This document shows, one piece after another, positions 8,730 to 16,830 of a stretch of 50,364 nt of DNA. The position numbers were made by a program, and so were the translations under genes. The notes beneath the pieces are model-generated. The model saw only the letters and a program-made list of their open reading frames with translations, was not told the origin of the DNA and did not search any database. Source of the DNA: Alphaproteobacteria bacterium (lineage in GTDB: Bacteria > Pseudomonadota > Alphaproteobacteria > SHVP01); assembly GCA_038148335.1 (NCBI GenBank), contig JAYQVF010000004.1, forward strand, positions 1-50,364, given 5' to 3'. Numbering within the stretch: the first letter of the stretch is position 1; every line of letters starts with the position of its first letter.

Positions 8730-9554
8730 TTATTCCGACCAAGGGGTCGGCTGTTTGGGGATTTCCTTGCCGTCGACGGTAATCGAGTCCACGCGCTCGT
8801 TGAAGAAGCAGAGCATGTCCCGAATCTTCGGGATCTCCGCGATGGGGTCGGGGTAATACCACACGATGTCCTCGTAGGTCTTGCCGCCGGCGTTGACCGA
8901 GTAGTAGCGCGCCGTGCCCTTGTATGGGCAGCCCGTCTGCAGTTCGGAGTGAGTCAGGTCAGCCGTGACGTCGACGCGCGGGATGTAGTAGCGCGTCGGC
9001 AAGCCCGTCTCGAACAGAAAGACGGCGTTCGTCGTGTCGGCAACGACCTCGCTGCCGAGCGTCACCTGGACGCGGCGCGAGGAGGGAATGGTATCGATGC
9101 GTTTGTAGGGGTCGCGGGGGTGTACGAAGATTTCTTCGTCTTCCTCGAACCAGTGGTCCATTCGTCCCCAATAGAACGCCACCAGTCCTTTCAGTTCGGG
9201 CTGGGCCGGAAGCGGGTCCTCGTAGCCCCAGACTGCGTTTTCCGCTTCGCGGTCGTCGACCCGGACGGTCCAGTACGAAGCGTCGCCCTTGTAGGGGCAG
9301 TGCGTGGAGTGATCCGTCTTGTGCAGCAGGTCCATCCGGACGTCCGCCGTCGGGAAATAGTAGATCGGTAGATGGCCGTCTTCGAACAGGAGCCGCATGT
9401 TGCTGGAGTCGGCGACGGTTTCGCCGTTGAAGACGACCCGAACGCGCCGCGGACTGCGATCGACGATCACGGCATGGCCGTCGCCCTGCCGTCCGGGGTG
9501 GGCGACCTTGAGGCCCTTGATGCGCTTGTTCGCAGGTGATTCGGCCATCGCCAT
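8730..9554 (-). CDS. tandem DUF427 domain protein
   Basis: Two repeats each with YYxP and CPYKG.A.Y; start moved to ATG 9554 after GGAGG. Confidence 0.9.
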   Translation of the reverse strand: MAMAESPANKRIKGLKVAHPGRQGDGHAVIVDRSPRRVRVVFNGETVADSSNMRLLFEDGHLPIYYFPTADVRMDLLHKTDHSTHCPYKGDASYWTVRVDDREAENAVWGYEDPLPAQPELKGLVAFYWGRMDHWFEEDEEIFVHPRDPYKRIDTIPSSRRVQVTLGSEVVADTTNAVFLFETGLPTRYYIPRVDVTADLTHSELQTGCPYKGTARYYSVNAGGKTYEDIVWYYPDPIAEIPKIRDMLCFFNERVDSITVDGKEIPKQPTPWSE

Positions 9555-9692
9555 GTTCTCGCCCTCCATCGGTTGCTTTTGCGTCATTCTAGGGAGCGGT
9601 GCCGAGGCCGCCAAACCACGGGTCGGCGAGCCATTGCCCAAGCGCCTGGGGGTCCATATAAGTCCCTGAAATACAAGGAAGGGGAGAAGGCG

Positions 9693-10529
9693 ATGCACGA
9701 TTCCATCAAGGACAAGGTGGTCATCATTACCGGCGGTGGCCGCGGGTTAGGACGGGCCATGGCATTGGGGCTCGTCGAGCAGGGCGCCAAGGTGGCGATC
9801 ACCGCTGCGAGGGAAGGCGTCGAACTGAAGCAGACGGCGGCTGACTGTGCGGCGATCGGCGGCGAGGACTGCGTGCTCCCCCTCCAGGCCGACGTCTCGA
9901 ACGTCGGCGATTGCGAACGCGTCATGGCCGATACCAAAAAGAAATGGGGCCACCTGCACGTCGTCGTCAACAACGCCGGCCGCGGCATGACGTACGTGCA
10001 TCCCAACTTCGTCAAGGAGCGCCCGCCGTTCTGGAGCATCCCCACCGACACGTGGCTGATGATGATCGACACCAACATCAACGGCGTCTTCAACATGGCC
10101 AAGGCTGCCGTGCCGTATCTCCAGGAAGAGGGGTGGGGACGCATCGTTAACGTCTCGACCAGCCTCATTACGATGCAACGCCGTGGTTATGCCCCCTACG
10201 GGGCGTCGAAGTGGGCGGTCGAAGGCATGACGATGATCATGGCCCAGGACCTCGAGGACACCGACATCACCGTCAATGCACTGTTGCCGGGTGGTGCGAC
10301 CGATACGGCGATGATCCCCGGCAAGGTCGGCGACAAGAACCGCGCCGGCGCCGACGGCAATCTGTTCGAGCCTGTGATCATGGTGCCGCCGATCCAGTAT
10401 CTCGTGTCCGACCTTTCCAATGGCAAGCGCGGCGACCGCTACGTTGCGAAGTTGTGGGACTTGAGCCTGCCGCCGGAGGAAGCGGCGTCCAAGGTGCGAT
10501 TCCCGATCAAGCGGAATCGGCAGTACTAG
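9693..10529 (+). CDS. SDR family oxidoreductase
   Basis: TGGGRGLG, VNNAG, YGASK; purine-rich SD before ATG 9693. Confidence 0.92.
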   Translation: MHDSIKDKVVIITGGGRGLGRAMALGLVEQGAKVAITAAREGVELKQTAADCAAIGGEDCVLPLQADVSNVGDCERVMADTKKKWGHLHVVVNNAGRGMTYVHPNFVKERPPFWSIPTDTWLMMIDTNINGVFNMAKAAVPYLQEEGWGRIVNVSTSLITMQRRGYAPYGASKWAVEGMTMIMAQDLEDTDITVNALLPGGATDTAMIPGKVGDKNRAGADGNLFEPVIMVPPIQYLVSDLSNGKRGDRYVAKLWDLSLPPEEAASKVRFPIKRNRQY

Positions 10530-10537
10530 GCGCGGCC

Positions 10538-11344
10538 ATGGCGTCCGATCCTTACGCCAAGATCGCCGACACGGATCCCACTGTCGTCCGCACGATCGCG
10601 GACCGGCTTGAGGTCCGCGCCGCGCACCCCGACCAGCGCGCGATGCTCGATGCCTATCTCGGCGATATCGCGTGGATCGAGGGCGCGCGCGCCATCGAGA
10701 TCGGATGCGGCACCGGGCCGGTTTCGCGCGTCATGGCGGCGCGCCCTGAGCCGGCGTCCGTTCTCGGACTTGATCCGTCGCCGATCCTGGTCGAGCGGGC
10801 GCGCGAGCTTGCCGCCGGGATCGACAAGCTCTCGTTCGAGGTGGGCGACGCCCGCAACCTCGGCTACGGCGACGGGTCGTTCGACGTCGCGGTCTTCCAC
10901 ACCTCGCTTTGTCATATTCCCGGCCCCGAAGCGGCGCTTGCGGAAGCATTCCGCGTCCTGAAACCGGGTGGCTGGCTTGCCGTCTTCGATGGCGACTACG
11001 CGACGGCTACCGTCGGGATTGCCGAACACGATCCGCTGCAGGCGTGTTCGCGCGCCGTCACCGAACACAACGTCATGGACCGCTGGCTCGTGCGGCGTCT
11101 GCCGAGCCTGATCAAAAAAGCCGGTTTCTCGGTGGAGCGGTTCCGGAGCCATGGCTATGCCGAGGTGATCGATCCCGTCTACATGCTGGGCCATGCGGAA
11201 CGCGGCGCCGAGGTGCTGGCCGCGCAGGGCATCATCGGCGACGATCTTGCCGAAGCGCTCAAGCGTGAAGCGCGGCGCCGTGCCGCAGAAGGCGCCTTCT
11301 TCGGGCACATCGCTTACGCCAGCGTAGCGGCCCGCAAGGCCTAG
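10538..11344 (+). CDS. class I SAM-dependent methyltransferase (UbiE-like)
   Basis: EIGCGTG, GDARNL, DGSFD, RVLKPGG. Confidence 0.9.
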   Translation: MASDPYAKIADTDPTVVRTIADRLEVRAAHPDQRAMLDAYLGDIAWIEGARAIEIGCGTGPVSRVMAARPEPASVLGLDPSPILVERARELAAGIDKLSFEVGDARNLGYGDGSFDVAVFHTSLCHIPGPEAALAEAFRVLKPGGWLAVFDGDYATATVGIAEHDPLQACSRAVTEHNVMDRWLVRRLPSLIKKAGFSVERFRSHGYAEVIDPVYMLGHAERGAEVLAAQGIIGDDLAEALKREARRRAAEGAFFGHIAYASVAARKA

Positions 11345-11751
11345 AAGATTTTCGACTTGTCCTTGTAAGACTTGAATTCCAGGTAATTGCCGGCGGGATC
11401 GGCGACGAACATGTTGCCGACGGTTCCGATGTCGGCATGATCCTTGACGTTGGGTTCGATGCGGAACGCGATGCCCTTGCTGCGCAGTTTGTTGGCCAGC
11501 GTGTTCCAGTCCTCCCAGTCCATGATCAGGCCGAAGTGCTTGTAGGGCTCGACACCGGGGTCGGCCTTGCTGGGTTCCACTTCGTCCGGAGCCTCGATCA
11601 GAACCATCTGGGCTCCGAAGAAGTTCACCACCGCGTAGCCTTTATCTTCTTCGCTCGGTCGCTCGCGGCAGCCCAGGGTGTTCACATAGAAGTCGCGCGC
11701 TTGCGCCAGGTCGTCGACCGCAAAGGCCACGTGAAAAACGGCATCCTGCAT
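11341..11751 (-). CDS. VOC/glyoxalase family protein
   Basis: FHVAFAVDDL..AR.FY..LG, HFGLI, FVADPAGNYLEFK. Confidence 0.88.
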   Translation of the reverse strand: MQDAVFHVAFAVDDLAQARDFYVNTLGCRERPSEEDKGYAVVNFFGAQMVLIEAPDEVEPSKADPGVEPYKHFGLIMDWEDWNTLANKLRSKGIAFRIEPNVKDHADIGTVGNMFVADPAGNYLEFKSYKDKSKIF

Positions 11752-11816
11752 GGCTTCCTCCCTCGATCCCCGCAGCCTAGGGCGTGGGTCGCCGGTCATG
11801 CAACCGAAGCCGCGGA

Positions 11817-11845
11817 TTGACCGGTCGTTGGCGAGGTACTCTAAT
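11817..11845 (+). promoter_or_regulatory. putative sigma70 promoter of a leaderless mRNA (beta-N paralogue 1)
   Basis: TTGACC-N17-TCTAAT-N7-ATG; no SD at normal spacing. Confidence 0.5.
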
Positions 11846-11852
11846 CGCCGAC

Positions 11853-12155
11853 ATGCCAGGACCGCACGATCTTGGCGGGATCGACTTTGGGCCGATCACC
11901 CGCGAAGACCACATCCGCAGCGATTGGGACAACCGCGTCGACGCGATGCAGCGGATTTTGCGCGAGTCGGGGTTGTGGACCGTCGACGAACTGCGCCGCG
12001 CCATCGAATCGCTGGCACCCGCGGACTACTACGCCTTCAGCTACTACGAGAAGTGGCTCTCTGCGATCCACCTGCTGTTGAAGGAGAAGGGCGTTCTGAC
12101 GGCAGGCGAGATCGAGGGCAGGATTGCCGAACTCAGGAAACGCCCAGCGAACTGA
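11853..12155 (+). CDS. nitrile hydratase beta N-terminal-like / thiocyanate hydrolase beta (ScnB)-like subunit, stand-alone paralogue
   Basis: 100 aa; HDLGG..FGP, W..RVDA, DELRRAIE, SYYEKW, EKG.LT. Confidence 0.85.
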   Translation: MPGPHDLGGIDFGPITREDHIRSDWDNRVDAMQRILRESGLWTVDELRRAIESLAPADYYAFSYYEKWLSAIHLLLKEKGVLTAGEIEGRIAELRKRPAN

Positions 12156-12176
12156 ATCGCGCCCGTCTTGGCAACG

Positions 12177-13241
12177 CTAGAACGGCTGCACCACCACCAT
12201 GACGACGATAAGCGCGCCCAGACCGGCGGCGGTGACAGCGCCCAAGTCGAAACCGAGGGCGGTTCGCGCCATACCGCCACGGGCGAACTGCCGGTAGGCG
12301 ACGACGAACGCGCCGTGGAGGGCAAGCAGCCCGACAACGGCGGCAAGCTTCACCCATAGCCAGATCGAAGCGAAATCGGGCTCGCCCGGAATGACGAGCA
12401 GGACGGCGCCGAACAGCATCGCGAGGATCATGGCGGGGGCGATCACAAGGCGCAGGATCGCGCGCTCTGCCCGGCCGAGCGATTCCGCCGCCACCATGCC
12501 GCGCACATGGGCGGCATAGAGCACGGGCAGGCACACCATGGCGCCGATCCAGATCGTTGCCGCAATGATGTGAAGGGCGATGATCCACGGGCGGAACGAC
12601 GCCCAGTCGGTGATCATTTCCTCCAGAGAGGCGCTGCCGCCGGTCCAGATCATCTCCAACGAGATATAGAAGATAAGAAGAACGCCGATATAGGCGATCC
12701 AGCGGTACTTCTGCAGGATGCGGGCCACGAGGATCGCGGCGGTTCCCATCAGGGCAACCGAAAGGACGAGGCCGACGACCAGAACCCAGGGGTGTTCGTG
12801 TGCTGCGCCGGCGACGGCCAGCACGTTATCGAGCGACATCGAGACGTCGGCCGCGACAATTTGCAGGGCCGCCTGCGCAAAGGTCTTGGGTTTGGCCCCC
12901 GCGACGGCGCCGCCTTCGAGCGCTTCTTCTCCTTGTGCCTGTTCGGCATGGGCGCCCTCGCGGAGCTCCCGCCATAGCCGCCACGACACCCATAGGAGGA
13001 GCAGGCCGCCCGCTATCAGCAGGCCGAAGACGTTGAGCAGGAATGTCGTGCCAAGAGCAAAACCAATGCGCAAGAGCGTCGCGGCGATGATGCCGATAAG
13101 GATGACTTTTCCGCGCTGGTGGGCTGGAAGGCCGGCCGCCGCCATGCCGACCGCAATGGCGTTGTCCCCGGCCAGGACCAGGTCGATCATGATCACCTGG
13201 CCCAGGTCGGCGAGTTCAGCGGTGCTGATAAAGTCCAGCAT
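12177..13241 (-). CDS. TerC (YjbE-type) membrane protein fused to a HemJ/CopD-like domain
   Basis: N-part IDLVLAGDNA and ADVSMSLDNVLAVAG (TerC); C-part WIIALHII..W...LP, ER..LR.I.PAM, W.WVKL, VVVQPF (HemJ-like). Confidence 0.85.
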   Translation of the reverse strand: MLDFISTAELADLGQVIMIDLVLAGDNAIAVGMAAAGLPAHQRGKVILIGIIAATLLRIGFALGTTFLLNVFGLLIAGGLLLLWVSWRLWRELREGAHAEQAQGEEALEGGAVAGAKPKTFAQAALQIVAADVSMSLDNVLAVAGAAHEHPWVLVVGLVLSVALMGTAAILVARILQKYRWIAYIGVLLIFYISLEMIWTGGSASLEEMITDWASFRPWIIALHIIAATIWIGAMVCLPVLYAAHVRGMVAAESLGRAERAILRLVIAPAMILAMLFGAVLLVIPGEPDFASIWLWVKLAAVVGLLALHGAFVVAYRQFARGGMARTALGFDLGAVTAAGLGALIVVMVVVQPF

Positions 13242-13347
13242 TCAAACCTGTTTCCTGCGGTCGGCGCGAACTCAAGATCGGCGGCGACCGGTCAGCGAAT
13301 AGCAGCCCCGGGAATGGCGCACAAGGGCGGCGCGGGCCATCGGGCTG

Positions 13348-13376
13348 TTGACGGACGAAGCGCGGCAACCTGTAAT
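13348..13376 (+). promoter_or_regulatory. putative sigma70 promoter of a leaderless mRNA (NHase-like operon)
   Basis: TTGACG-N17-TGTAAT-N7-ATG(13384); no SD. Confidence 0.5.
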
Positions 13377-13383
13377 GCGCAAC

Positions 13384-13686
13384 ATGCCTGGACCTCATGA
13401 TATCGGCGGCAAGAACTTCGGACCGGTCGACCGCAGCGAGCACACGCGGACCGATTGGGATGATCGAGTCGACGCGATTCTGAAGCTGATGCTTGCTGGG
13501 CGACGCTTTCGTATCGATGAACTGCGACGCTCAATCGAGTCGCTTTCGGAACAGGACTACATGACGCTCAGCTACTACCAAAAGTGGCTGGTCGCGATGC
13601 GTGGTCTGATGGTCGAAAAAGGCCTCCTGACCGAGGAGGATATCAGCCGCCGTCTCACCGAGCTGCGCAAGAGGAAGGCCGCATGA
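13384..13686 (+). CDS. nitrile hydratase beta N-terminal-like / ScnB-like subunit (operonic copy)
   Basis: 100 aa; HDIGG..FGP, DELRRSIE, SYYQKW; ATGA overlap with the next gene; start chosen by alignment to the paralogue (alternative ATG 13375). Confidence 0.88.
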   Translation: MPGPHDIGGKNFGPVDRSEHTRTDWDDRVDAILKLMLAGRRFRIDELRRSIESLSEQDYMTLSYYQKWLVAMRGLMVEKGLLTEEDISRRLTELRKRKAA

Positions 13687-13970
13687 GTTTCACGTTCGCG
13701 ATTGGTCAAAAGGTTCGAGTCAAGGAAGGCGATCCGCCGGGCCATATCCGCACGCCGTTCTTTCTGCGGGGCAAACGCGGCATGATCGAGGCGCGCCACG
13801 GCGAATTCCGCAACCCGGAAGAGCTGGCGTTCGGCAAGGAAGGGTTGCCCAAGAAGCCCCTTTATCTCGTCACGTTTCGGCAGACCGATGTCTGGCCGCA
13901 CTACACAGGCCCTGCCGGGGACACGGTCAGTGCCGACATCTACGAACATTGGCTCGAAGCCGACGAGTGA
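13683..13970 (+). CDS. nitrile hydratase beta C-terminal SH3-like / thiocyanate hydrolase alpha (ScnA)-like subunit
   Basis: F.IGQKVRV, PGHIRTPFFLRGK.G, PLY.V.F...VW, DIYEHWLE. Confidence 0.88.
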   Translation: MSFTFAIGQKVRVKEGDPPGHIRTPFFLRGKRGMIEARHGEFRNPEELAFGKEGLPKKPLYLVTFRQTDVWPHYTGPAGDTVSADIYEHWLEADE

Positions 13971-13977
13971 GGATACC

Positions 13978-14622
13978 ATGGCCCATTCCCACCATGACCA
14001 CGATCACGATCACGACGACCACGCGCCCATAGAGGCGGCCGGAACCGCCAGCGAATTCGAACTTCTCGAGCAGGCAATTCGCGAGCTGCTGATCGAGAAG
14101 GGCGTGTTTACGGCCGACGACGTTCGTCGGCAGGTTGATGCGACCGACAGCGTCAGTCCGGCTGACGGCGCCAGGGTGGTCGCGCGCGCTTGGGCCAACC
14201 CGGAGTACAAGGCCTGGCTGATTAACGATCCCAAGGCGGCAATCGAGTCGCTCGGCTATGACCTCGGTCCGGCGCCAAACCTCGTGGTTCTTGAGAACTC
14301 CGCCGATCTGCATCATGTCGTCGTCTGCACTCTTTGTTCCTGCTATCCGCGCGTTCTGCTCGGCCCGCCGCCCGACTGGTACAAGAGCAAGGAATACCGG
14401 GGGCGGGTGGTGATCGACCCACGCGGCGTTCTCAAGGAGTTCGGCACGACCCTGCCGAACGACATCGAGATCAAGGTCGTCGATTCAACGGCCGACATGC
14501 GCTATCTGGTGCTGCCGCCGCGCCCCGCCGGGACCGAAGGGATGGCCGAGAAGGACCTGGCTGCCCTGGTGACCCGGGACTGCATGGTCGGCGTGACCCT
14601 GCCCGACGCGCCAGCCCACTAG
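13978..14622 (+). CDS. cobalt-type nitrile hydratase alpha / thiocyanate hydrolase gamma (ScnC)-like subunit
   Basis: VVCTLCSCYP metal claw (Thr/Tyr indicate Co-type), GARVVARAW, WYKS.EYR, DSTADMRYLVLP.RP.GTEG; His/Asp-rich N-terminus. Confidence 0.93.
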   Translation: MAHSHHDHDHDHDDHAPIEAAGTASEFELLEQAIRELLIEKGVFTADDVRRQVDATDSVSPADGARVVARAWANPEYKAWLINDPKAAIESLGYDLGPAPNLVVLENSADLHHVVVCTLCSCYPRVLLGPPPDWYKSKEYRGRVVIDPRGVLKEFGTTLPNDIEIKVVDSTADMRYLVLPPRPAGTEGMAEKDLAALVTRDCMVGVTLPDAPAH

Positions 14623-14633
14623 CCCATGAATTC

Positions 14634-15344
14634 ATGACCGGCACCGTCCGGATCGCGACATCGGACGGCGCCGAGATGGCGGCGCTTTTTTCCGCACCGG
14701 CCCACGTTCCGGCACCCGGCATCGTGGTTCTGCACGAGATCTTCGGCATGACCGAATTCGTGCACAGCCGTCTGCCGCTGCTGAATTCCCAGGGTTATGT
14801 CGCGATGGCTCCCGACCTCTATCACCGGATCGCGCCCGGCGCGTCGTTCGACTACGCGGGCGAGTCGTGGGAACGCGCGTTCGCGACGCGGAACCGTCTC
14901 GACGACGATCTGGCGGTGCGTGACATTGGCCGGGCGATCGAGGCGCTGCGGGCGCGGCCGGAATGCAACGGCAAGGTCGCCGTGGTGGGCTATTGTCTTG
15001 GCGGCCTGCTTGCGTTCCTTGCCGCGGCACGCCTGGACGCCGATGCAAACGTCTGTTTTCACGGCGTTCGCCTTGAGACACGGTTGAACGATGCCGCCGC
15101 CATCCGCGGGCCGCTTCAGATGCATTTTGCCGGCCTTGATCGCTATGCCCCGCCCGAGGTCGTGGCGCAGGTCAAGGCAGCACTGCCGCCGGGCGCCGAC
15201 GTCGAGTGTCTCGACTATCCGGACGCCGACCATGGTTTCAGCCGCGAAGGGCAGCCGGTTTTTCATCCCTCGGCAACTGCGCAGGCCCATGCCGCGCTCT
15301 TTTCATTCCTCGACCGCACTCTTGAGAAAGGATCCCTTGCATGA
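14634..15344 (+). CDS. dienelactone hydrolase family protein
   Basis: HEIFG, APDLY, GYCLGG nucleophile elbow, YPDADHGF. Confidence 0.92.
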   Translation: MTGTVRIATSDGAEMAALFSAPAHVPAPGIVVLHEIFGMTEFVHSRLPLLNSQGYVAMAPDLYHRIAPGASFDYAGESWERAFATRNRLDDDLAVRDIGRAIEALRARPECNGKVAVVGYCLGGLLAFLAAARLDADANVCFHGVRLETRLNDAAAIRGPLQMHFAGLDRYAPPEVVAQVKAALPPGADVECLDYPDADHGFSREGQPVFHPSATAQAHAALFSFLDRTLEKGSLA

Positions 15345-16120
15345 GCGAAACGACAGTGGACTTCAGCCGCCTTGGTCCGGCCCCGGGCGCCCGGGTCGTC
15401 GTGGTCGGCGGTTGTGGCGGGATCGGACGCGAGGTGGTCAAGGCGACCGTCGCGACCGGCGCAAAGACGACGGTGCTCGACCTTGCTGTTTCCCATGAGC
15501 GCCACCCCGGTCCCAACGAGGCCGCTTTCGTCCCGATCGATGCGCATCGCGAGGAAACGATCGTCTCCGCGTACGAGGAGATCGGCAAGGACGGCCCCAT
15601 CGACGCCTTGATCAATCTCGTCGGCTATCGCGACGCGCTCCATCGTCTGACGGATCGGGATTCCGCGTCATGGGACGACATCATTGCGGGCAACTTGCGC
15701 TCGGCCTTCCTCATCTGCCGGCATGCGCTGCCCTTAATGGCCGACGGCAGTGCGCTGGTAAACGTATCGTCCGGGCTCGCCACACGGGTCCTGCCCGGAT
15801 ATGCGCCCTACTCGGCGGCGAAGGCGGGAGTGATCGCGCTGACAAAGGGCATCGCGATGGAAAATGCACCGCGGGTGCGGGCCAATGCGGTCGCGCCGGC
15901 CGCCGTGAAAACGGCCTTTCTCGCTGGGGGCACCGGCCGGGTCGACGAAGAAGAGGGTGATTGGGATAGCGAGTATGGTGGCTACATCAAGACCATTCCG
16001 ATGGGCCGCCTCGCGGTGCCGACGGACATCGTCGGTCCGATCCTGTTCTTGGCCGGTCCGGCGTCCGGGTTCATGACCGGGCAGGTACTATACGTGAACG
16101 GCGGCGGGCTGATGCCTTAG
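15341..16120 (+). CDS. SDR family oxidoreductase
   Basis: GGCGGIG, YSAAKAG, RANAVAP, MTGQVLYVNGG; ATGA overlap with the upstream gene. Confidence 0.9.
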   Translation: MSETTVDFSRLGPAPGARVVVVGGCGGIGREVVKATVATGAKTTVLDLAVSHERHPGPNEAAFVPIDAHREETIVSAYEEIGKDGPIDALINLVGYRDALHRLTDRDSASWDDIIAGNLRSAFLICRHALPLMADGSALVNVSSGLATRVLPGYAPYSAAKAGVIALTKGIAMENAPRVRANAVAPAAVKTAFLAGGTGRVDEEEGDWDSEYGGYIKTIPMGRLAVPTDIVGPILFLAGPASGFMTGQVLYVNGGGLMP

Positions 16121-16548: not shown

Positions 16549-16830
16549 ATGGCGAAAGTCGCAGCCTTGGCCGCAAAGAGAAAGTCCGCTAAGCGGAAAC
16601 CCGCAGCCAAGAAGAAGCCCGCAGCCCGGAAGAAACCGGCGGCTAAAAAGCCAGCGGCACGGAGGAAGACTCGGAAAGCGGCTGCCAAAAAGACAACCAA
16701 GAAGGCTGCCAAAAAGGCCACGAAGAAAAAGGCCACCAAGAAAAAGGCCACCAAGAAAAAGGCCGCCAAGAAGGCCGCCGCTGCAGCGCCCAAGAAGCGC
16801 AAGGCCAAGCGGAAGGCAAAAAAAAAGTAG
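16549..16830 (+). CDS. Lys/Ala-rich histone H1-like nucleoid protein
   Basis: 93 aa of KKPAA/KKAT repeats; GGAGG SD. Confidence 0.8.
   Translation: MAKVAALAAKRKSAKRKPAAKKKPAARKKPAAKKPAARRKTRKAAAKKTTKKAAKKATKKKATKKKATKKKAAKKAAAAAPKKRKAKRKAKKK

Follow-up and report, generated by a model that had tools for sequence, protein, structure and literature searches.

Why would a bacterium that encodes a single alpha subunit and a single C-terminal beta half of a nitrile hydratase (NHase)-type enzyme keep two genes for the N-terminal half of the beta subunit? This question is raised by a stretch of 50,364 nucleotides (contig JAYQVF010000004.1 of assembly GCA_038148335.1, an Alphaproteobacteria bacterium; hereafter, the window). 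In it, an operon coding for the beta N-half (betaN; this gene is called copy 2), the beta C-half (betaC) and the alpha subunit is preceded by a surplus betaN gene, copy 1, which is located 1.2 kb upstream of copy 2, with a gene on the opposite strand intervening. An initial annotation of the window had suggested that the extra gene codes either for a second specificity module or for a cobalt-insertion chaperone.

We favour, tentatively, the view that copy 1 serves the same three-piece enzyme of the cobalt-type (Co-) NHase family as an alternative, catalytic beta N-half. According to this proposal, a duplication in the ancestor of the genus, or close to it, would have copied the betaN gene along with its promoter, and the product of copy 1 would bind the single alpha and the single betaC at the place of copy 2. 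It would retain the catalytic Arg and the Tyr-Tyr/Trp motif and show fixed differences from copy 2 at the "upper entrance loop" of the tunnel, and the enzyme would thus exist in the cell in two forms, each with its own tunnel mouth, by which substrate access would be widened or shifted. Copy 1 might also have a side role in maturation, as the betaN halves of three-piece enzymes can be swapping chaperones. We infer the binding of copy 1, its co-expression and any difference in substrate range; the catalytic role is favoured because the tunnel-mouth and catalytic residues are conserved and the fixed differences are concentrated at the tunnel mouth.

Two N-half genes and one core

The source genome (G000), a metagenome-assembled genome (MAG), comprises 3.3 Mb in 300 contigs and is 95.6% complete; profile searches of it found a single alpha and a single betaC, along with two strong matches for betaN and a weak third. 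Both copies match Pfam NHase_beta_N (PF21006; cut-off 21.5 bits) at full length from profile position 1, copy 1 spanning positions 1-102 of 115, while betaC matches NHase_beta_C (PF02211) and alpha matches NHase_alpha (PF02979). These matches agree with the split beta subunit described in the initial annotation, whose open reading frames (13384-13686 for betaN and 13683-13970 for betaC, followed by alpha) we recovered. Its comparison of the copies also stood: both have 100 residues and align without gaps (BLASTP: 53/99 identities, 73/99 positives, E 6e-41), and a direct reading of the alignment gives zero identical positions within residues 32-44.

The HMMER alignments of the copies to the beta chains 3qxe_B and 1ire_B are gapless from W25 on and, therefore, residue n of either copy corresponds to beta residue n+4. 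The catalytic residues betaArg52, Tyr68, Tyr69 and Trp72 thus become R48, Y64, Y65 and W68, all of which are invariant in 19 sequences of both groups, together with M1-D6, G8-G9, D45, E46 and R49. Copy 1 retains the N-terminal arm, the DELRR segment and the YY-KW motif.

Differences at the tunnel mouth

Comparing 11 copy-1-type with 16 copy-2-type sequences, with a consensus of at least 70% in each group, we found ten positions that are fixed differently (33, 34, 36, 37, 40, 42, 43, 56, 60 and 70). Seven of them fall within residues 33-43, and the probability of finding at least seven of ten in an 11-residue window was about 1e-4 by permutation. The outgroup state has been kept by copy 1 at positions 33, 34, 40 and 56 and by copy 2 at positions 36 and 43. 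Within the copy-1 group, Q33, R37, G40 and W42 are completely conserved (1.00) and S43 nearly so (0.91), and we read the copy-1 states at the discriminating positions as the outcome of conservation, not of drift.

What this segment does in solved enzymes is indicated by PtNHase, where betaPhe41, Met46, Gly47 and Leu48 are reported to form the betaN side of the tunnel entrance and the betaM46R substitution to widen the substrate scope (PMC9297474). Mapped by sequence alignment to 1IRE and 3QXE, these residues correspond to positions 37, 42, 43 and 44, which are conserved within each group as R, W, S/T and V in copy 1 and as L, F/I, R and V/I in copy 2. Three of the four (37, 42 and 43) are discriminating (hypergeometric P 0.0028). 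The placement of the divergent segment at the substrate channel, as the initial annotation had it, therefore agrees with the account of PtNHase, residues 37, 42 and 43 aligning to its tunnel-entrance residues beta41, 46 and 47 (PMC9297474), and it is chiefly around the tunnel mouth, in the "upper entrance loop", that the copies would differ.

Would such a protein fit the core? We modelled alpha and betaC with copy 1 as the partner, with an alignment supplied for every chain, and obtained a score of 0.90, against 0.01 for the best of three controls; the mark used for this score is attained by 58/80 solved complexes and by 2/110 mismatched pairs. The model runs agreed in at least 86% of contacts, with a partner pLDDT of at least 91. 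The modelled interface comprises residues 1-2, 5-20, 34-36, 42-43, 45-46 and 48-49 of copy 1, and residues 118-121 of alpha (within the CTLCSC motif) and 45 and 48-51 of betaC. The model places copy 1 in the beta-N site. As NHase complexes have already been solved, the result may reproduce what is known of them and speaks for likeness only; in this sense, copy 1 resembles a betaN that would fit.

Distribution and origin of copy 1

The comparison covered the genus (eight genomes, G000-G007) and the family (17 genomes); the relatives are MAGs, in which assembly errors may account for the frameshifts of G004 and G006. All eight genomes of the genus encode one alpha and one betaC (the alpha of G004 in three pieces). 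The survey for the same duplication, which the initial annotation had suggested, found copy 1 in six of them (G000-G004 and G006), and the same arrangement occurs in a seventh genome record (L054). The orthologues in G001-G004 share 64-78% identity with copy 1 of the window. In G004 (L021), alpha, SDR1 and the methyltransferase gene of the surrounding cluster are each in two or three frames and copy 1 starts with MLGPHD; assembly errors, or else decay of the entire cluster, may explain these features.

Elsewhere in the family, three genomes (G009, G011 and G014) carry two complete split operons of different types, and G008 has an orphan betaN elsewhere in its genome. The latter adjoins genes for an EamA-like transporter and a nucleoside hydrolase (labels read from the translations of the open reading frames, not Pfam matches).

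The trees are weak, as only 100 columns are usable. In a 63-row tree, neither the accessory proteins (support 100/98) nor the fused betas (99/90) fall into the split betaN clade, from which both are clearly set apart and within which the copy 2 group is a clade (100/100) and copy 1 a basal grade. In a 50-row tree, the two copies are sister clades (supports 92, 99 and 85, the first being that of copy 1 and the last that of the sister relation). An AU test rejected copy 1 as a single clade (p 0.009; a group defined only once the tree was known) and did not reject copy 1 plus copy 2 as a single clade (p 0.25). Additionally, the segment from VDA to DEL has 13 residues in both copies versus 15 in the other genera of the family. 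The sister relation of the copies rests on the 50-row tree and this common segment, and the whole reads as a single duplication near the base of the genus.

Promoter-like elements and expression

An alignment of the upstream regions revealed a bipartite element, TTGAC[CG]-N17/18-T[CG]TAAT, that ends 6-7 nt 5' of the ATG. It fits the upstream regions of 6/6 copy 1 and 8/8 copy 2 genes of the genus. In other genera, it is found upstream of four of the seven single betaN genes of the cognate operon, the remaining three having near variants, and upstream of none of the four betaN genes that are orphan or belong to the second operon type. The full pattern TTGACS-N17/18-TSTAAT-N6/7-ATG occurs at exactly two sites in the 3.3-Mb genome, one for each betaN copy. 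A generic promoter scan gave 0 sites, because it needs an A at the second -10 position, which is absent from the conserved TSTAAT. A Shine-Dalgarno sequence is found upstream of betaC and alpha, and upstream of neither betaN copy. From these upstream regions, we infer that the duplication carried the promoter along and that both genes start leaderless (or nearly leaderless) transcripts and are expressed together.

Transcript data are scarce at this locus. Two RNA libraries, in which DNA carry-over is possible, cover small shares of the window, and a single X19 contig (272 nt, no differences) corresponds to 13824-14095, at the betaC/alpha junction. Nothing usable on copy 1 was found in these two libraries, whose coverage is small and whose uncovered parts are uninformative.

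Duplicated N-halves in other lineages

The occurrence of two betaN domains is not limited to this genus. Among the best 150 of 1965 representatives matched by copy 1, several have two betaN stretches. For instance, P0031 is a natural betaN-betaN fusion with two intact NHase_beta_N domains, whereas the second domain of P0034 has neither the arm nor the Arg, and in a Burkholderiales MAG (L066, 5800-7526) betaN, betaN, betaC and alpha are neighbouring genes. P0079 also belongs to the proteins with betaN duplications of other lineages. These pairs belong to another clade, where their members are mutual nearest relatives with 61-64% identity (50-row tree) and, therefore, arose by independent duplications; the same loop again varies in length among them. 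By analogy, a change of specificity by betaN exchange may have evolved several times. Natural betaN::alpha fusion proteins with a His-rich linker were observed as well (L038 on contig C1 of G022, P0050 and P0136).

These arrangements bring in a further explanation, namely that both copies are used at once, in an (alpha-betaC)2 heterotetramer with one copy 1, one copy 2 and two non-equivalent active-site entrances. The same promoter-like element on both genes would suit such a complex, as would the tandem pair of L066, which precedes one betaC and one alpha, and the existence of fusions such as P0031, in which the N-halves are necessarily present at 1:1. The holoenzyme of Streptomyces canus CGMCC 13662, reported as AnhD2E2A2 (PMC7329996), would also suit it. 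However, the copy 2 of G005 and G007, where copy 1 was lost, shows no visible compensating change, which disfavours an obligate hetero-complex, and the tandem and fused pairs, being independent duplications in another clade, are analogies only. We regard the mixed complex as very improbable.

Evidence against a second catalytic subunit

Several observations weigh against our proposal that copy 1 is an alternative catalytic N-half. Copy 1 is absent, with the operon kept, from G005 (99% complete) and G007 (100% complete), whose loci contain no N; it is broken by a frameshift in G006; and its W25, which is conserved elsewhere, is lost in G003, G004 and G006. In the least saturated pair (G003-G004), 81/95 residues of copy 1 are identical versus 94/95 of copy 2, with dN of 0.092 versus 0.005. 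The modelled interface positions are no more conserved than the rest in either group (Mann-Whitney p 0.97), and the promoter type, common to both copies, does not hint at regulation of each by a substrate of its own. That copy 1 stands apart, has been lost from 2/8 genomes and has changed faster in one sub-lineage favours a helper or dispensable role, as does the reported precedent of S. canus. Even the retained catalytic residues would be compatible with a helper, by analogy with AnhD, the betaN half of S. canus (PMC7329996).

The loss in G005 and G007, the frameshift and the changes at W25 could mean that copy 1 is a redundant duplicate, which provides dosage at most, has no distinct function and is heading for loss, and for which only one alpha and one betaC are available to serve. 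Nevertheless, its dN/dS is 0.13-0.21 in the 9/10 pairs for which it was computable, across species with saturated synonymous sites; for copy 2, it is 0.004-0.19 in 23/28 computable pairs, all these values being rough because dS is mostly saturated. Copy 1 is, thus, constrained by purifying selection, less tightly than copy 2 in G003-G004. Redundancy is also at odds with the differences from copy 2, which are group-specific, invariant and clustered in one segment, with the promoter-like element that was kept in 6/6 genomes and with the same arrangement in the seventh record, and it appears improbable to us.

A role in maturation

A stronger alternative is that copy 1 is mainly a maturation factor, that is, a self-subunit-swapping or cobalt chaperone that acts through an alpha(betaN)2-type mediator, the double role of AnhD being divided over two genes. 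In S. canus, the enzyme is made of AnhD, AnhE and AnhA, and AnhD is reported to be both a part of beta and a swapping and metal chaperone (through AnhD2A) in a genome without an activator gene (PMC7329996). Since a betaN half is reported to act as a chaperone there, the full-length betaN character of copy 1 is compatible with a helper role. Both systems have the order betaN-betaC-alpha, a Co-type alpha and a genome without an activator, but in ours a further betaN paralogue is found 1.2 kb upstream, with a promoter-like element of its own; the two were compared by description only.

The absence of other candidates also fits a chaperone. The initial annotation saw no other activator nearby, and a search of the whole genome with TIGR03889 (activators) extended this, as nothing scored above the cut-off of 46 bits and the top two matches were both betaN copies (22.4 and 20.1 bits). 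Across the 77 loci examined, an accessory-type gene is near 59/60 fused-beta loci versus 0/17 split-type loci. Additionally, copy 1 lies outside the translationally coupled operon, is dispensable in two of eight genomes and changes faster than copy 2 in G003/G004, and its promoter type is that of the operon, as would be expected of a helper.

The classical activators are another matter. The initial annotation regarded them as beta-N homologues that work by subunit swapping, in agreement with PMC3511329, where swapping chaperones are encoded downstream of the structural genes, are smaller than 17 kDa, have weak similarity to beta and contain no known metal-binding motif. Such chaperones form an alpha-e2 mediator and make cobalt insertion and Cys oxidation possible. 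Like NhlE, NhhG and P14K, copy 1 is a small (11 kDa) beta homologue without Cys or a known metal-binding motif, encoded beside the structural genes. Unlike them, it has strong full-length similarity to beta, scores 21.1 bits with TIGR03889 (copy 2, 22.5 bits), below the cut-off of 46, and is located upstream on its own promoter-like element instead of directly downstream, the position that PMC3511329 gives for chaperones. The N-terminal arm and the DExR Arg, invariant in copy 1, are absent from the four accessory proteins of canonical operons that were examined.

Could the gene between the copies, which codes for a TerC/YjbE-family putative metal-transport protein, connect copy 1 with metal? 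Both genes are missing from G005 and G007, a point in favour of a maturation role. In G009, G011 and G014, however, TerC lies between the glyoxalase gene and betaN, and copy 1 is absent; TerC has, therefore, belonged to the cluster for longer than copy 1, its link to metal is not specific to copy 1, and the idea of a specific connection between the two genes is weakened. We also asked whether copy 1 and TerC were lost through recombination between the two copies; over its first 120 nt, the betaN gene of G005 and G007 resembles both copies to about the same degree (79-93/120 identical).

Two further points reduce the case for a chaperone. The strict conservation of the tunnel-entrance residues in the copy-1 group is not predicted by such a role, and the need for a helper would be smaller given the His-rich N-terminus of alpha and the report that ToyJ matures alone, which is cited in PMC7329996. 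We hold a dedicated maturation role to be rather unlikely, and retain, with the caution expressed above, the alternative catalytic N-half as the preferred explanation.

The enzyme and its family

Although alpha has SCNase (thiocyanate hydrolase) gamma as its best solved relative (2dd4_C, E 8e-62), Co-type NHases are just behind, and betaN and betaC are nearest to the Co-NHase beta of P. putida (3qxe_B; E 4e-15 and 1e-14), with weaker matches to SCNase chains (E 2e-8 and 7e-8). The initial label "NHase/SCNase-like" was sound in its placement within the Co-NHase family and weak in its mention of SCNase. Alpha scores 217.2 bits with TIGR03887 (SCNase gamma), well below the cut-off of 291.45, and 244.3 with TIGR01323, just below the cut-off of 249.85. 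On TIGR03888 (beta), copy 1 (88.9), copy 2 (79.9) and betaC (70.6) are all below the cut-off of 152.2 because beta is split. By these family tests, the enzyme is placed, like the three-subunit NHases of S. canus and of toyocamycin metabolism (toyocamycin NHase), in the split-beta branch of the Co-NHase family, and the hydration of nitriles, which yields amides, is the predicted activity of split-beta NHases.

A Tyr after the CXLCSC motif marks the cobalt type. The CTLCSCY motif on which the initial annotation based its cobalt-type alpha is present, and the best solved relatives are all cobalt enzymes. CXLCSC is the metal-binding motif of alpha, and a Thr at X corresponds to the cobalt type, according to PMC7329996.

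The SCNase of Thiobacillus thioparus (2DD4 A/B/C, with P15K as its activator) resembles our system in its three-gene split, its His/Asp-rich N-terminus and the Arg after CSCYP. It differs in the N-terminal extensions of its beta (157 aa) and alpha (126 aa) subunits, to which our matches begin only at 2dd4_B 47 and 2dd4_A 37, whereas the proteins of the window (100 and 95 aa) match from residues 4-5 and have no extensions; moreover, no P15K-type gene is found here. An identity as thiocyanate hydrolase is rejected on the family cut-offs and the missing subunit extensions. The shared Arg (R125 of alpha, directly after CSCYP and equivalent to SCNase gammaArg136) is invariant in 21 split-type alphas, and therefore characterizes the split clade at large rather than only SCNase. 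Canonical enzymes have a Trp after CSCYP. The N-terminus of alpha (residues 1-16; 13978-14025) is rich in His and Asp, a trait common to SCNase gamma, with H8 and H10 at least 90% conserved in the same 21 alphas; it could be a built-in metal-capturing tail.

With the canonical Co-NHases of P. putida NRRL-18668 (3QXE) and P. thermophila (1IRE), our system shares the fold families, the catalytic residues and one-to-one tunnel positions, but its beta is split in two genes with the N-half duplicated, its order is beta-first and it has no accessory gene. The order betaN-betaC-alpha is found in 17/17 split-type loci. In the literature searched, whose scope left out subscription journals and supplementary files, we found no paper on a duplicated beta N-half.

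Gene layout and neighbourhood

The features of the locus are collected in Table 1. The stop codon of copy 2 and the start of betaC overlap in an ATGA (13683-13686), and betaC and alpha are separated by 7 nt. The dienelactone-hydrolase (DLH) and short-chain dehydrogenase/reductase (SDR) genes that follow are probably in the same transcription unit as alpha.

Table 1. Features around the two betaN genes (positions in the window)
Feature	Position	Strand	Remarks
VOC/glyoxalase-family gene	11341..11799	-	Pfam PF00903; divergent from copy 1; left neighbour, kept in the cluster (synteny)
Promoter-like element TTGACC-N17-TCTAAT	11817..11845	+	Ends 7 nt 5' of the copy 1 ATG
Copy 1, surplus full-length NHase beta N-half paralogue, 100 aa	11853..12155	+	PF21006, 89.3 bits; own transcription predicted
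TerC/YjbE-family membrane protein fused to a UPF0093 (HemJ-like) domain	12177..13241	-	Between the copies; convergent with copy 1
Promoter-like element TTGACG-N17-TGTAAT	13348..13376	+	Ends 7 nt 5' of the copy 2 ATG
Copy 2, operon-linked beta N-half, 100 aa	13384..13686	+	PF21006, 81.2 bits
betaC, beta C-half (SH3-like domain), 95 aa	13683..13970	+	PF02211, 76.9 bits; single copy in the genome
Alpha, Co-type, VCTLCSCYPR, His/Asp-rich N-terminus	13978..14622	+	PF02979, 260.9 bits; sole alpha of the genome
DLH-family and SDR genes	14634..16120	+	DLH 138.5 bits, adh_short_C2 150.1 bits; directly 3' of alpha; cluster members (synteny)

The enzyme is embedded in a cluster kept across the family (8730-11344 and 14634-16120 in the window), with tandem DUF427, two SDRs, a methyltransferase, a VOC/glyoxalase and a dienelactone hydrolase. 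Its order is DUF427x2 - SDR - methyltransferase - VOC/glyoxalase(-) - [copy 1(+) - TerC(-)] - copy 2 - betaC - alpha - DLH - SDR, and such conserved surroundings point to a small-molecule pathway. Downstream of the cluster (16549-16830, plus strand), there is a gene for a Lys/Ala-rich, histone-H1-like protein of 93 aa, and an equivalent open reading frame occupies the same place in G002-G005 and G007.

In four genera, the TerC/YjbE gene has been kept next to the split NHase operon. The product encoded in the window matches Pfam TerC (139.4 bits), UPF0093 (75.5 bits) and TIGR03717 (YjbE putative metal transport protein; 200.1 versus a cut-off of 134.8), and the gene is long, that is, UPF0093-fused, in G000-G002, G009 and G014 and short in G003, G004, G006 and G011. 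That this protein supplies metal to the enzyme is only a guess. Rfam gave zero matches in the window at gathering scores and zero in 11300-14100 at E up to 1 and, therefore, no riboswitch, upstream of TerC or otherwise, links TerC or copy 1 to metal.

The weak third betaN-like domain of the source genome (contig C24, L047 3285-3965, minus strand) lacks the DExR Arg and is fused to Cupin_2. Its gene adjoins one for an isochorismatase-family hydrolase, and similar weak matches are present in 8/8 genomes of the genus.

Implications

NHases are industrial catalysts, and their scope has been engineered by mutating the same tunnel-entrance loop at which the two paralogues differ. If the two N-halves do confer two substrate ranges, this genus would hold a natural, exchangeable module of 100 aa that retunes an enzyme and that could be directly copied. 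The corresponding general picture, in which one alpha and betaC core is served by two natural, co-expressed betaN modules and the bound small subunit sets substrate access, is one that we put forward with more doubt than confidence. If copy 1 is instead a dedicated helper, the double role of betaN would have been split between two genes, and copy 1 would occupy a middle place between classical activators and a beta subunit. Under either reading, the locus would be an inexpensive and clear test case for the assembly and maturation of the poorly studied split-beta branch of the family.

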